DNA of 64,000 nucleotides, taken from assembly GCA_018027755.1 (NCBI GenBank), contig GCA_018027755.1_4098.1; one strand, given 5' to 3'. Shown piece by piece: positions 37,195 through 52,904 of this stretch; position 1 is the first letter of the stretch; the number at the start of each line of letters is the position of its first letter. The notes beneath the pieces are model-generated. The model saw only the letters and a program-made list of their open reading frames with translations. It had not been told where the DNA came from and made no database searches. The stretch is from a phage. Position numbers and translations under genes: made by a program.

Positions 37195-37857
37195 ATGATG
37201 AAATCAAAATTAGGTTTGTTTTATAAAAACTATTTTGTTAAACAACGTAAATTTATAAAAAAATATTTCTCTGGCGAGAAGTCTAGTCCTATAATCTTTA
37301 AAAGACCAAGTTATAATACTTACTTAGCTGGTGCTAAACAGTCTAAGAAATTTATTACTCTTTTACATAAAAACAAAATTAAAGCTTCTTATGTTGAAAC
37401 GAGAAGAAACTCATCAATAACTCCTGGTGATTTTATTGAGTACGGATGTTTCAATATTAAGTACAATGATAATACATACTTTATGGATATTGATTGTAAT
37501 ACATCCAATCTTTTTAACATTGTAGTAAATCCATTAAAACAATATAATGTTTATGGTGATTCTATTATCAAATTAATCAAAAACAAAGATAGCTTTGATT
37601 TTGAAATAAATGTTTTAGATGATAATTTTGACGAAGTACCAGTAAACCCTGAAATCTGTGATATTTTAAACAGTTTAAAAGGTAGTACCTACAATATATC
37701 ATCTGATTTAATGTTTCAGTACTCATTAATCCATAAAGATATTGAAAAGTATATTGAATGCTCCAGAATTTTGAATTTTCTCTATGATGAATTTAAAAAG
37801 AGTTCTAAAATAACTGCATACACTTTGTACAATATTCCTAAAATGGTGAATCTTTAA
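37195..37857 (+). CDS. hypothetical protein
   Basis: SD AAGGAG upstream; last gene of the plus-strand string. Confidence 0.55.
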   Translation: MMKSKLGLFYKNYFVKQRKFIKKYFSGEKSSPIIFKRPSYNTYLAGAKQSKKFITLLHKNKIKASYVETRRNSSITPGDFIEYGCFNIKYNDNTYFMDIDCNTSNLFNIVVNPLKQYNVYGDSIIKLIKNKDSFDFEINVLDDNFDEVPVNPEICDILNSLKGSTYNISSDLMFQYSLIHKDIEKYIECSRILNFLYDEFKKSSKITAYTLYNIPKMVNL

Positions 37858-38263
37858 CAAATACAGTACTGGCAACTCCACCGTCTGTAATATATTGTCC
37901 AGTACTGTAAATTTGTATACCATCGGTTAAGTAAGTTCTGTATAAAGTTGCTGTAACATATACGTTATTCATATTCATCTCTATTGGTAGTACACATTTG
38001 GTATAGGCCGACACATCTGTTTGTGTACCTATACCCAATTGACCTGCGTTATCGCCTGTGTTATTACCAGTTGCGTAAACACCCAATGAAGTTATAATAT
38101 GATTAGAAAAATATGAATAACCCAAACTCTTGAGATTCTCTACTGTACAACGTACCATCTGACATAAGGGCAAAAACTGTCGTATCAGATGAAGCTATTT
38201 TTGTAACAGAAGGTTGTATGTTCTTTTTTGATGATGTGATAATTCTTCGAAAGGGTAGCATTG
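37838..38263 (-). pseudogene. degenerate, frameshifted MLPF-family paralog
   Basis: ATG at 38263 after GGAGGA gives MLPFRRIITSSKKNIQP... and stops after ~53 codons near 38104; an RCC1-like motif (GDNAGQLGIGTQTD) continues in another frame (38173..37838); upstream junction is a diverged copy of the family junction. Confidence 0.5.
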
Positions 38264-38309
38264 TATCCTCCAAATGTAAATCGTTATTATATTTAGGACA
38301 AAAAAATGC

Positions 38310-38327
38310 CAGTACAAGGCACTGGCA
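38310..38327 (-). terminator. junction hairpin
   Basis: gccagtgccttgtactggc (minus-strand reading) followed by a T-run. Confidence 0.45.
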
Positions 38328-38515
38328 TAAAATCTAAGCAGAAGGCATATCCTTCATCTTAATAAATGAAAATTGTGTACCAGTATTTGTGGTTCCAATT
38401 TCTTTATTTCAGGAAGAGTTGGTTTAATATTTCCGTACTTTAACATTCTTCCAAAAGGTAACATAAATCCCTCCTTTATTCATTATACTATATTTAATAC
38501 AAAAAAAAAGAAAAG

Positions 38516-38534
38516 CCAGTATCAAGTACTGGCC
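38516..38534 (-). terminator. junction terminator hairpin (GCCAGTA-N5-TACTGGC)
   Basis: Conserved hairpin with T-rich tail immediately 3' of the gene at 38540..39889. Confidence 0.6.
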
Positions 38535-38539
38535 CTATA

Positions 38540-50435: not shown

Positions 50436-50481
50436 ATTTCCCTCCTTTATTCATTATACTATATTTAATACAAAAAGAAAT

Positions 50482-50500
50482 GCCAGTATCAAGTACTGGC
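50482..50500 (-). terminator. junction terminator hairpin
   Basis: gccagtacttgatactggc. Confidence 0.6.
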
Positions 50501-50507
50501 ATAGTAT

Positions 50508-51635
50508 TCAAAAAGGTAAATCAATTTGCTTAGTAATAATAGTATCTAACGGTATTGAACACAATGAGAAATTCTTTCCACCCGTATTTTTAGGATTATA
50601 TCCATTCATCCATACATTATTACCTTCGTAAAATGTATTCCAGTATAAAGACCCACTATATCGTGTATTCGAATTGAACGATGTAAAATTGAATTCTTGA
50701 AATGCTGTAAAATATGGAAGGGAACTTGAACTACTTCCCGTAAATGGGGTATGCCCAGTTGCTATTAGTTTGTTTGTATCTGCATTAATTAAAAATACAA
50801 CACTAGTCGAATAGTCCAACGAATCAGGATGATATATATTACTCATATCACCTATAGTAAAACCAACATCAAAAACTTTACTATGTGCACCACTACCAGC
50901 AAAAGTAGTTCCAGTTGCATATATTTTATTATCAGATGTTATCATTACAAAACCAACACCAGAAACAAAACTGCATTTTATATCATAAGATATATCATCA
51001 AACAACGGAACAAATGTGGTTGCATCACCCGATGTTGCTTTAACTTGAAAGCTGTTATTTGAACCTGAACCATATACAGTTCCATCGTTTTTAATCTTAA
51101 ACAATGTATCGCCAAGGTAACCGCCAAATATATTATCCACATTAGTGTCAAGTACAGTCCACGCTGAAACATAATTTTTATGTCCTAAACCTAATGCACC
51201 ACTTCGATTCCATCCTCTTCCATAAAGTGTTCCGTCTTTCATTAATATAAATGCTGTATAACCACATAACATTTTTTTAATTTGGGTAACATCTATACCA
51301 GTGAAATACACAGCCCAGTCAGTATATCCTTGTTGGAAAGTATTAGAATTCGTGAATGCATATGTTGAACCTGAACCATATATTTTATCACCTTTAATAA
51401 CAACGGAAAACGATCCTAACCATAAGTCATCAACTTCAGTTGTGATTTGTTGAACTGCTCCTAACGATACAAACTTTGTACTTAAACCCGCATTATAGTT
51501 TGAATCTTCACCGTGTGCATATACAGTGCCATCTTGCATTAGAAACATTTCAAGAGTGTAACTAACAACACTTTTCTTTATATTATTAACTTCGATTATA
51601 TTCCCATAATCAAACATTCTAACAAAAGGTAACAT
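50508..51635 (-). CDS. MLPF-family paralog (375 aa), Gly/Ser/Thr/Asn/Tyr-rich
   Basis: MLPFVRMFDYGN; weaker RCC1-like motifs. Confidence 0.7.
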   Translation of the reverse strand: MLPFVRMFDYGNIIEVNNIKKSVVSYTLEMFLMQDGTVYAHGEDSNYNAGLSTKFVSLGAVQQITTEVDDLWLGSFSVVIKGDKIYGSGSTYAFTNSNTFQQGYTDWAVYFTGIDVTQIKKMLCGYTAFILMKDGTLYGRGWNRSGALGLGHKNYVSAWTVLDTNVDNIFGGYLGDTLFKIKNDGTVYGSGSNNSFQVKATSGDATTFVPLFDDISYDIKCSFVSGVGFVMITSDNKIYATGTTFAGSGAHSKVFDVGFTIGDMSNIYHPDSLDYSTSVVFLINADTNKLIATGHTPFTGSSSSSLPYFTAFQEFNFTSFNSNTRYSGSLYWNTFYEGNNVWMNGYNPKNTGGKNFSLCSIPLDTIITKQIDLPF

Positions 51636-51707
51636 AATTCCCTCCTTTATTCATTATACTTTATTTAATACAAATAAGAATTCCTGTATCGAGTACTGGC
51701 ATTCAAT

Positions 51708-52856
51708 TTATTGTAAAAAGGACATATCTACTTCTGTATAACTAAGAATGTTTTGACCAGCAATTCCACCCATTACTACTATTGCATACCCACAATAATA
51801 TAATTTCCCAGTGTCCGTAAGTATAAGTGAACCAGAAGGTGTTCTTACCAAATTACACGAACTATTAAAAGAAGTATACGAAGGAGTATAGGAGTACTGA
51901 TTAATATTATTACCAACACCTAATTGACCACCCCTATTCGAACCAGATGCATAAAGTACTTCATCTGCTTTGACAATATGTGATGCCATGTTAGCAACAC
52001 ATGCATATACACCATATACCCCTGTACTCAATAATGTAGGAGTCTTGTATTGAATATCAGTACTAGTAGATGTTCCACCTGTGCCAAATTCATTACCATA
52101 TTGTGCTCCGTACTGCTTCCCACATGCGTACAAATTATTATCCGATTTGATAAAAAATGTACTCTGATAACTTACATCAAAATCTATAACATCCGAAGAA
52201 ATCATCGTTACCCCAGTAATCGAAGTTTGATTACCAGTACCCAACTGGTAGTAATAGTTAAAACCACAACCCCATAAAGTATTATCTTCTCGCAAATAAA
52301 TGTTACCAACAGCCTTTTTAACAGATGTTATAGTACTGACCTTCTTGAATGTATTAAATGAATCAATGTTAGTACCATCTCCAAAGGAGGATATGTTCGA
52401 TGCGTTATTAGCACCACAACAATATAATGTCCCATCCTTCAGTACTAAATTTACCTTCATATCATTAAAACTGCTCATGTACTCAATATCAGATACACTA
52501 ATACCACCTGATGTTATCCACGTAGTACAGTCCGTCCATAACGTCTTCCTATCAGTTACCCCAGTAAATGCCTTCGTGTTACCAGTGATAAACACTTTAC
52601 CAGTACCCTTTTCTTCATACAATTGACAATCACTACTGTTATCTTCCAATAAAACCCTCTGTACATTCTCTGCACAAAGAATAAATTTACTCGAAGCTAC
52701 TCCTGTACCAGTACCCCAATTCGTCGCAGAAGATGCATACAACTTGTGTGTTAGTGTATCATGCAAATACATAGAACCACTAGAATATATTTTAAAACGC
52801 CCTTCTTTCTCAGGTATAATATTCCCATAATCAAACATTCTAACAAAAGGTAACAT
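51708..52856 (-). CDS. MLPF-family paralog, Gly/Ser/Thr/Asn/Tyr-rich
   Basis: Start at MLPFVRMFDYGN (52856); first gene of the minus-strand array. Confidence 0.7.
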   Translation of the reverse strand: MLPFVRMFDYGNIIPEKEGRFKIYSSGSMYLHDTLTHKLYASSATNWGTGTGVASSKFILCAENVQRVLLEDNSSDCQLYEEKGTGKVFITGNTKAFTGVTDRKTLWTDCTTWITSGGISVSDIEYMSSFNDMKVNLVLKDGTLYCCGANNASNISSFGDGTNIDSFNTFKKVSTITSVKKAVGNIYLREDNTLWGCGFNYYYQLGTGNQTSITGVTMISSDVIDFDVSYQSTFFIKSDNNLYACGKQYGAQYGNEFGTGGTSTSTDIQYKTPTLLSTGVYGVYACVANMASHIVKADEVLYASGSNRGGQLGVGNNINQYSYTPSYTSFNSSCNLVRTPSGSLILTDTGKLYYCGYAIVVMGGIAGQNILSYTEVDMSFLQ

Positions 52857-52904
52857 ATTTCCTCCTTTATTCATTATATCATATTTACCCCATAAACAAA
52901 ACCC

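Follow-up and report, generated by a model that had tools for sequence, protein, structure and literature searches.

Gene arrays encoding RCC1-like proteins have been described in Asteriusvirus jumbo coliphages (121Q genes 234-248; phAPEC6 gp001-010, gp549 and gp551; PBECO4), and both the array and its association with virions are already known, under the label of RCC1-like "DNA condensation" proteins; the presence of multiple RCC1-like copies was pointed out in the papers on phages CBB and phAPEC6. Here, we analyze such an array in a 64,000-nucleotide (nt) stretch of phage DNA (GenBank assembly GCA_018027755.1, contig GCA_018027755.1_4098.1; hereafter the window), which comes from a 121Q/PBECO4/phAPEC6-like Asteriusvirus, a Rak2-like jumbo coliphage. 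The window array has the same locus, flanks, strand and gene family as its described counterparts, but differs from them in cassette content, with two body types that are absent from the seven other arrays we compared. Its 12 intact genes place diverse protein bodies behind one conserved N-terminal dodecapeptide (the tag, or handle), and we read the array as a hypervariable cassette locus in which a docking tag is carried by interchangeable binder domains that are displayed externally and shuffled at junction repeats, a model to which, taken as a whole, we assign a probability of roughly 0.55. In the literature that could be searched, we found neither the shared tag described nor its distribution over genera and folds, the alternative tag, the repeated junction or the mosaicism of the cassettes, and six common hexapeptides of the MLPF handle had no occurrence in searchable papers.

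Several better-known systems resemble this locus in part. The capsid-targeting sequence (CTS) of phage T4 is MKTYQEFIAE, and the T4 internal proteins that bear it are similar to the array in carrying a ~10-12-residue N-terminal tag on otherwise unrelated virion proteins encoded at a variable locus; here, however, the tag is unrelated and lacks a conserved Glu cleavage site, and the bodies that it heads, propellers of ~40 kDa and lectin-like domains, contrast with the small charged T4 proteins. Phages with several receptor-binding proteins (RBPs) on conserved N-terminal anchors, such as CBA120 (TSP1-4), G7C and K64-1/RaK2 with their branched fibres, likewise join a conserved attachment N-terminus to a variable distal binding module that is exchanged rapidly between relatives. 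The array differs from these in that its anchor is a 12-residue peptide and its bodies are predicted to be monomer-like and globular, in place of a folded anchor with trimeric spikes, and in that its genes lie outside the tail module, each as a rule with its own promoter and terminator. Finally, T4 Hoc is a non-core, surface-displayed binding domain at hexamer centres and a single conserved Ig-like protein, as opposed to the repertoire found here. 121Q and phAPEC6 carry unassigned "hairy" fibres on capsid and tail, as well as an unassigned protein or fibre at each hexon centre that recalls Hoc-type decoration.

An array of tagged genes between conserved flanks

On the left flank of the array, 24 kb of sequence match 23 phage records at 97-98% identity and ~90% coverage, and the array itself is covered to at most 39% in any record. 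It consists of 12 intact minus-strand open reading frames (ORFs) of 245-449 amino acids (aa), every one of which begins with MLPF, with a consensus start of MLPF(A/V/G)R(M/L)xxY(G/A)N. When the 12 proteins are aligned, residues M1, L2, P3, F4, R6, Y10 and N12 are invariant, although overall identity is only 16-21%. The proteins are near-neutral (isoelectric points (pI) of 5.05-8.73), contain few charged residues, and are composed of 43-54% G, S, T, N and Y. A preliminary description, made from the sequence of this DNA, had counted 12 intact genes and one degenerate copy; the 12 intact MLPF genes stand, but we found two degenerate copies rather than one. EC22.5-2, a complete related genome of 352 kb, contains 14 handle ORFs and 12 junction motifs, all confined to its array. 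The present analysis shows the anatomy of the array, the folds of its proteins, a disordered tag that recurs in several genera and the mosaicism of the locus, with virion association taken from published mass spectrometry (MS) of relatives.

Among RCC1-like Pfam models, PF25390 and PF13540 are each matched by 10 of the 12 genes (best E 1.5e-32) and PF00415 by 7, and PHROG 4219 is matched by 11 of the 12; the 449-aa protein of cassette H (letters denote body types, defined below) has no Pfam match and reaches PHROG 4219 at E 3.6e-18. An AlphaFold2 (AF2) model of cassette E (46874-48043), the one paralog for which the propeller was modelled, is a seven-bladed propeller with a predicted local distance difference test score (pLDDT) of 88.1 and a predicted template modelling score (pTM) of 0.87. 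Foldseek relates this model to UVR8, RPGR, HERC2 and RCC1, the best E value being 3e-21 and the template modelling (TM) scores reaching 0.77. The word-based protein search with one RCC1 paralog yielded 16 matches, which is enough for an AF2 alignment but not a census. For cassette D (44802-45539), by comparison, AF2 modelled a glycine-rich body (pLDDT 91.8); a direct PF21722 scan of this protein gave no match at E<=10, but many of its homologs (E 1e-17 to 1e-6) carry PF21722, and alignment with these PF21722-bearing homologs reveals the common motifs GGGNGG, GGGAGGY and VRIIWG. Eleven bodies are RCC1-like propellers, and the remaining one, cassette D, is a glycine-rich non-propeller, such that the earlier designation of the genes as beta-propeller paralogs holds for 11 of the 12 but fails for this 245-aa protein.

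The solved phage relatives of cassette D are external tail appendages, namely the tail fibre of cyanophage Pam3 (7YPX) and the gp33 tail wing brush and gp29 tail spike of mycobacteriophage Bxb1 (9D93); to these and to the ALK glycine-rich domain its identity is only 14-24%, and it differs from the appendages in being a free-standing 245-aa protein with an MLPF tag. PDB sequence searches with both family profiles returned no solved virion structure containing a relative. Three paralogs match a "tail protein" PHROG, and gene 40 of phage PVP-SE1, an RCC1+Ig "tail protein", closes a tail-fibre cluster.

The tag is shared across genera and folds

The mean pLDDT of tag residues 1-10 is 49 in cassette E and 45 in cassette D, and that of residues 11-20 in cassette E is 64. 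Because the first ~10 residues fall below a pLDDT of 50 and lie outside the fold in both models, we interpret the dodecapeptide as an appended tag, predicted to be disordered, rather than part of a domain. We also considered the handle as a velcro strand closing the propeller and rejected this idea, as the model shows the handle to be disordered and non-propeller bodies have it as well.

The tag extends beyond Asteriusvirus. In Pectobacterium phage CBB, which has no RCC1 genes, the glycine-rich homolog CBB_144 starts with MLPFSPLIVYGN, and nine further MLPF...Y(G/A)N proteins have LamG, Kelch or other bodies. Similarly, GAP32_001 (RCC1) starts with MLPFSRIIQYGN and GAP32_002 (LamG-like) with MLPFARIFRYGD, and the tag is also present in genes 581-584 of Xanthomonas phage XbC2 and in the array of Serratia phage BF, with some BF and XbC2 members retaining only MLPFPIIS. 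These observations bear out the earlier suggestion of interchangeable modules on a common handle, given that the tag lies outside two predicted folds and heads RCC1, Kelch, LamG and glycine-rich bodies. In all, CBB has ten genes that carry the MLPF tag (CBB record 344368-355464, and 6001-6765 of record L003), their bodies being LamG, Kelch, glycine-rich or of other kinds.

In CBB, GAP32, XbC2 and BF, the DNA upstream of the tagged genes is unconserved, and MLPF...Y(G/A)N is kept in most members. Across these other genera, all four Pro, both Phe and both Tyr codons are used and the residues remain constant, and this combination of varying synonymous codons with constant residues argues for protein-level selection on the tag; codon 2 is nearly always TTA, other genera included. 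Glycine-rich homologs in other large phages have an alternative start, M(L/I)E(L/M)(L/I)..., and in one ~150-kb phage a glycine-rich protein starting with MLEMLTVG is found alongside a LamG protein starting with MNEMLMLG. Judged from these sequences, the tag looks like a lineage-specific address on horizontally shared domains. When IMG/VR was scanned for exact patterns of the handle DNA, only 121Q, CBB and three chance short ORFs were recovered, so that no metagenomic repertoire was gained.

Tagged proteins in published virion proteomes

For virion association, we drew on published bulk MS of relatives of the window phage, at the protein level for CBB and JP4. Electrospray ionization tandem MS (ESI-MS/MS) of phAPEC6 virions identified gp003, 005, 006, 007, 009, 010, 549 and 551, with 1-5 unique peptides each (PMC7247149); the array of this phage consists of gp001-gp010 together with genes on the other side of the record origin. 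Among the proteins in the virion dataset of JP4 are JP4_577, 581 and 582 (PMC12648861), all of which start with the tag. CBB_144 was detected in virions with 5 peptides, other members of the CBB array are annotated as structural (PMC5259590), and GAP32_001 is an MS-identified structural protein. The CBB authors also noted six MS-identified structural proteins that are absent from GAP32 and are hence tail-whisker candidates; mapping locus tags by position and size, we observed that five of these six appear to be tagged CBB genes.

Collectively, the detection of handle-bearing proteins in virions of phAPEC6, JP4, CBB and GAP32 agrees with the previously suggested role of the dodecapeptide as a virion-addressing peptide, and it is very probable that the tag marks virion-incorporated proteins. 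Their copy number in the virion appears low. None of the outcomes that the preliminary description had named as contradicting it, such as the absence of both a propeller fold and a shared N-terminal module, or absence from virions combined with early expression, was found.

Junction elements precede most cassettes

The preliminary description had reported that most genes share an upstream junction of hairpin and U-tail, and 10 of the 12 intact genes do carry such a junction, consisting of a terminator hairpin, a T-run and then AAATATAGTATAATGAATAAAGGAGG. This 26-nt element occurs 11 times at <=3 mismatches, all within the array (0 expected), and the hairpin GCCAGTA-N5-TACTGGC, again with a T-run after it, has 10 array copies at <=2 mismatches (0.15 expected for the whole window), with an eleventh copy having a 6-nt loop. 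There are 24 terminator-like sites against 6.5 expected, and RNA folding returns the junction hairpins as predicted. Comparing junctions by BLAST, as indels blur a column-by-column identity profile made without gaps for the region before the ATG, we found that junction-plus-handle segments share 82-95% mutual identity over 105-133 nt. The two genes starting at 43546 and 49224 have no junction and begin 8 nt past the upstream stop codon, but keep the handle; in both of the resulting bicistronic pairs, I-C (gap 43547-43554) and F-B (gap 49225-49232), these 8 nt and a GGAG lie between stop and start. The F-B pair with the same 8-nt gap is also found in EC22.5-2 and G17, and the order in phAPEC6 is B, F, E.

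An Rfam scan of 37000-58000 detected no known RNA family in the junctions, and a sigma-70 promoter scan showed no enrichment (84 sites vs. 84.7 expected), with the junction TATAAT lacking a good -35. When the junction is compared with the phAPEC6 late motif (T)ATAAATA, TTAAATA is the only near-match, next to TATAGT/TATAAT. We also considered a silent-cassette system, a shufflon and a diversity-generating retroelement, and rejected them on the grounds that every intact cassette has a start codon and a ribosome-binding site (RBS), 10 of 12 have a promoter-like element and a terminator, and all are in direct orientation; no search of the flanks aimed at a recombinase or reverse transcriptase was made. 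Additionally, in folds of read-through RNA such as that of 46803-46880 (minus strand), the U-rich tail of the terminator can pair with the AAAGGAGG RBS of the next gene. One might speculate from these modelled folds that such pairing would silence translation from read-through RNA and spare transcripts from the cassette's own promoter.

Arrays differ by whole cassettes

To compare cassette content, we analyzed eight arrays (window, 121Q, phAPEC6, ph0011, EC22.5-2, TH47, G17 and A4), with a body type defined by >=70% amino-acid identity. These arrays contain 31 body types, with 4-14 intact genes per phage, and their order is loosely conserved, being broken by insertions, losses, replacements and some rearrangements. 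In the window, one body type (A) occurs twice with different handles and two (R and S) are absent from the other seven arrays; type A is present in 7 of the 8 arrays, with TH47 alone lacking it. Handle variants are independent of body type, such that type B is found with five different handles, and handle nucleotide identity is 0.886 for orthologs between phages vs. 0.883 for non-orthologs of the same phage. Within the genus, handle codons are CCT in 76/76, TTA in 75/76 and AGA in 72/76 cases, compared with 30%, 46% and 42% in the bodies. These synonymous sites, frozen within the genus unlike across genera, point to homogenization or recent spread of the junction-plus-handle segment.

Homology blocks within the array end in junction zones in 61 of 70 cases vs. 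13.6% expected, a figure that is partly built in as all units have the same junction, but one that still shows whole cassettes to be the units of homology. Measured against one and the same other phage, cassette identity ranges from 81 to 98%, and this spread between cassettes against a single phage indicates a mosaic ancestry. The junction had earlier been put forward as an obvious substrate for shuffling, and the eight arrays do differ cassette by cassette between near-identical flanks, with homology blocks ending in junctions; we consider it likely that the locus evolves through cassette exchange at these sites. In phage A4 (4746-7683 of record L011, A4_236/237), we also observed that the decayed array end is replaced by two minus-strand genes, of 668 and 314 aa, without a called MLPF start.

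Proposed function and alternative explanations

We propose that the array encodes accessory virion proteins that follow one plan, in which a lineage-specific tag of ~12 residues (MLPF-x-R-Φ-x-x-Y-G-N) and a short linker precede an interchangeable globular binding domain, which for the one glycine-rich member is of a fibre type. The tag would dock each protein at a common virion site, so that the particle carries a mixture of low-copy binder domains, most likely on its outside (as capsid or tail "hairs", or at decoration sites), where they would broaden or tune the adhesion of the phage to ligands on cell surfaces or in the environment. The docking role, the external location and the adhesive function are what we infer, and we hold the odds that the proteins are displayed externally as adhesins to be about even. 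External display is favoured because the solved phage relatives of cassette D are tail-surface appendages, the RCC1+Ig protein of PVP-SE1 lies in a tail-fibre cluster, and LamG and Kelch domains are typical ligand binders. At the DNA level, most genes would act as self-contained units comprising the terminator of the upstream gene, a promoter-like TATAAT, a strong RBS and the first 12 codons, and the ~110-130-bp shared segments may supply the homology through which unequal crossing-over occurs and co-infecting phages exchange DNA. As a result, whole cassettes would be gained, lost, duplicated and reassorted, and handles swapped between bodies.

Several findings weigh against this model. The array lies amid small early-type genes and far from the structural module, which in phAPEC6 is >120 kb away, and its promoter differs from (T)ATAAATA, the late motif that precedes structural genes in phAPEC6. 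Peptide counts of 1-5 could reflect co-purifying contaminants, but the pattern recurs in four phages and two genera. As each body is predicted to be one globular domain and no fibre, the bodies themselves cannot be the ~100-nm hairs. The built-in part of the block-end statistic counts here as well. Lastly, a short conserved tag, diverse bodies and a variable locus together are precisely the pattern of T4 internal proteins, in a lineage that has a T4-like prohead protease and scaffold.

That last point leads to an explanation in which the array would encode packaged internal proteins in the manner of T4, with the MLPF tag as the capsid-targeting sequence and the cargo ejected with the DNA, for instance to inhibit host defence. 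The T-even set is likewise diverse, with nothing but a ~10-residue CTS in common and with polymorphic loci (PMC3012670, citing Repoila 1994). Genes for a prohead core scaffold/protease, a portal and a late sigma factor of the T4 type are present in phAPEC6, its particle has an inner body, tagged proteins are found in virions by MS, and in a ~150-kb phage the gene for the glycine-rich homolog, which bears the other tag, immediately precedes those for terminase, portal, protease and capsid. RCC1-like propellers can moreover be tight protein inhibitors, as in BLIP-II. The array proteins, however, have no conserved Glu in residues 1-20 and no L/I-x-E site (position 9 is K, D, E or N, and the linker after N12 is unconserved), and their near-neutral, G/S/T/N/Y-rich composition is unlike that of the small charged T4 proteins. 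Folded propellers of ~40 kDa would also be awkward to pass through a tail tube, and the known relatives of the glycine-rich body (solved tail appendages) and of the RCC1 bodies (PVP-SE1, in its tail-fibre cluster) point to the outside of the particle. We regard packaging as unlikely, but as the main rival to external display. A different role inside the particle, as DNA-condensation or inner-body proteins that order the packaged 350-kb genome, is suggested by annotations such as "regulator of chromosome condensation" and "putative DNA condensation protein", by the proposal of the phAPEC6 authors that these proteins help in an ordered DNA structure, and by their virion association. That name derives, however, from a eukaryotic Ran guanine-nucleotide-exchange-factor fold and not from any DNA-binding test, and to our knowledge Ran is absent from bacteria. 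With pI values no higher than 8.73, few charged residues and a hydrophobic MLPF tag in place of a basic tail, with cassette sets that differ near-completely between 97-98% identical phages (5 vs. 14 cassettes) and are thus unfit for core packaging, and with CBB using the same tag on LamG and Kelch bodies in the absence of RCC1 proteins, we rejected this highly improbable role on composition, turnover and cross-genus use of non-RCC1 bodies.

The conserved 5' segment could alternatively serve expression alone, as a copied promoter, RBS and first codons encoding a functionless peptide, with the proteins being non-structural host-interaction factors that co-purify with virions. Conservation of the Asteriusvirus handle at synonymous sites, its contiguity with the conserved promoter and RBS, the near-constant TTA at codon 2, also in other genera, and the low MS peptide counts would all fit, but other genera vary both the upstream DNA and the synonymous codons and mostly keep the peptide, the two junction-less window genes retain the handle, and tagged proteins recur, by detection or annotation, as virion components in four phages and two genera across independent studies, making this quite improbable. 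Somewhat less so, though still improbable, is the notion that these are conventional RBPs of the baseplate network, whose N-terminus sits on an adaptor and each of whose cassettes is a primary determinant of host range. A conserved N-terminal anchor with a variable distal domain fits branched RBP systems, the locus is hypervariable, and both the "tail protein" PHROG in 3 paralogs and the position of PVP-SE1 gene 40 are in keeping with it; against this, the anchor is a peptide of only ~12 residues and not a folded domain, the models show single globular units with no trimeric fibre or beta-helix, the array is distant from baseplate and tail-fibre genes, and phages from similar E. coli hosts have very different sets.

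Returning to the external-display model, if the tag is a docking signal, this would explain the origin of a large and so far unexplained share of jumbo-phage virion proteins, as well as the fact that near-identical 350-kb genomes vary most at this locus. It would also replace a misleading "DNA condensation" label with a testable function, and therapeutic jumbo phages could be loaded with foreign proteins by means of a 12-residue handle, as done with T4 CTS and Hoc/Soc. The junctions would be a clean natural example of whole-gene cassette exchange via short repeats that join terminator, promoter, RBS and first codons. A broader and more tentative idea, which we hold to be possible but somewhat less than even in likelihood, is that the tag is a portable virion address that brings any domain to a conserved docking site in Rak2-like jumbo phages, with an orthogonal M-L/I-E-L/M-L tag serving other large myoviruses on these same bodies, which would be exchanged horizontally. 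RCC1, Kelch, LamG and glycine-rich domains would then form a "tag-and-display" market in which they are re-addressed via ~12 codons, and in Asteriusvirus the junction repeats would turn this into a repertoire driven by recombination.

Organization of the window array

All features of the array lie on the minus strand, and we describe them in the direction of transcription. The first gene, cassette J (51708-52856; 382 aa, RCC1-like), is preceded by a half-junction (52857-52886) that has the promoter-like element and RBS, AAATATGATATAATGAATAAAGGAGG, without an upstream terminator. A junction with a degraded hairpin (51636-51700; TCCTGTATCGAGTACTGGC on the plus strand) then leads to cassette S (50508-51635; 375 aa, RCC1-like), one of the two body types unique among the eight arrays, and the next junction (50436-50502) to cassette F (49233-50435; 400 aa, RCC1-like, handle MLPFARMVKYAN), which is followed by its junction-less partner, cassette B (48115-49224; 369 aa, RCC1-like), starting 8 nt past the stop of cassette F. 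Cassette E (46874-48043; 389 aa), with its modelled seven-bladed RCC1-like propeller and disordered N-terminal handle, is preceded by the junction with the 6-nt loop variant of the hairpin (48044-48111). Further along are a junction (46803-46869) and the second copy of cassette A (45612-46802; 396 aa, handle MLPFVRMFDYGN), whose body type is that of 41167-42357, and then a junction (45540-45605) and cassette D (44802-45539; 245 aa, handle MLPFGRMIKYGN) with its PF21722-related, glycine-rich non-propeller body.

The junction at 44731-44794 precedes cassette I (43555-44730; 391 aa, RCC1-like), the phAPEC6 ortholog of which is the virion-detected gp006. Cassette C (42437-43546; 369 aa, RCC1-like) has no junction of its own and starts 8 nt past the stop of cassette I, with a GGAG spacer. 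It is followed by a junction (42358-42422) and the first copy of cassette A (41167-42357; 396 aa, RCC1-like, handle MLPFARMMNYGN), by a junction (41094-41162) and cassette R (39960-41093; 377 aa, RCC1-like), the other body type unique among the eight arrays, and by a junction (39890-39953) and cassette H (38540-39889; 449 aa, handle MLPFARMVKYGN), which has a diverged RCC1-like body assigned to PHROG 4219 and orthologs in ph0011 and A4.

The two degenerate copies form the end of the array. Behind a junction with terminator hairpin, T-run and AAATATAGTATAATGAATAAAGGAGG (38465-38536) lies a stub of a type-N cassette (38354-38464; 36 codons, start MLPFGRMLKYGNIKPTLPEIKKL) with a ~1040-bp internal deletion: window 37100-38394 is 99.4% identical to phAPEC6 (record L002) 2742-4035, after which the alignment resumes at 5074-5210. 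The gene that is truncated to a 36-codon stub here is intact in phAPEC6 as gp010. A diverged junction (38262-38328) with hairpin GCCAGTGCCTTGTACTGGC, a T-run and a degenerate promoter/RBS precedes the terminal pseudogene (37838-38261), which comprises an N-terminal fragment (38103-38261) with the diverged handle MLPFRRIITSSKK and an out-of-frame C-terminal RCC1 remnant ORF (37838-38173). phAPEC6, G17 and EC22.5-2 share this decayed copy with the window, and the 121Q version is longer and split (genes 234/235).

Neighbouring features of the window

Divergent from the array, the plus strand at 52959-57121 encodes at least 16 tandem tiny paralogs of 59-77 aa, which start with MN/MH-(K)E(F/Y)Y and end in a hydrophobic tail of the L(I/L)xx(Y/F) type, and which are interrupted by a 219-aa ORF (54603-55262). 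Directly upstream of the array, at 34713-37152 (plus strand), are seven genes of ~105-140 aa whose products are strongly hydrophobic and transmembrane-like, several with basic KRKRG tails; 121Q, phAPEC6 and ph0011 have conserved counterparts, annotated there as hypothetical proteins without a name. A lone 384-aa gene on the minus strand (7671-8825) lies within a long plus-strand block, and its protein has no tag start; after it, a hairpin at 7645-7663 (GCCACTAC-AATG-TAGTGGC) resembles the array terminator. Between 58000 and 64000, GC content rises from ~0.33 to ~0.40, with the GC skew, negative from 38 to 58 kb, changing sign near 58 kb, and two ~80-aa paralogs (59601-59840 and 61615-61884) share the motif KNKTHWNVSLWINNDESLYR. 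Near the opposite end of the window, a tRNA-Thr is located at 1519-1593.

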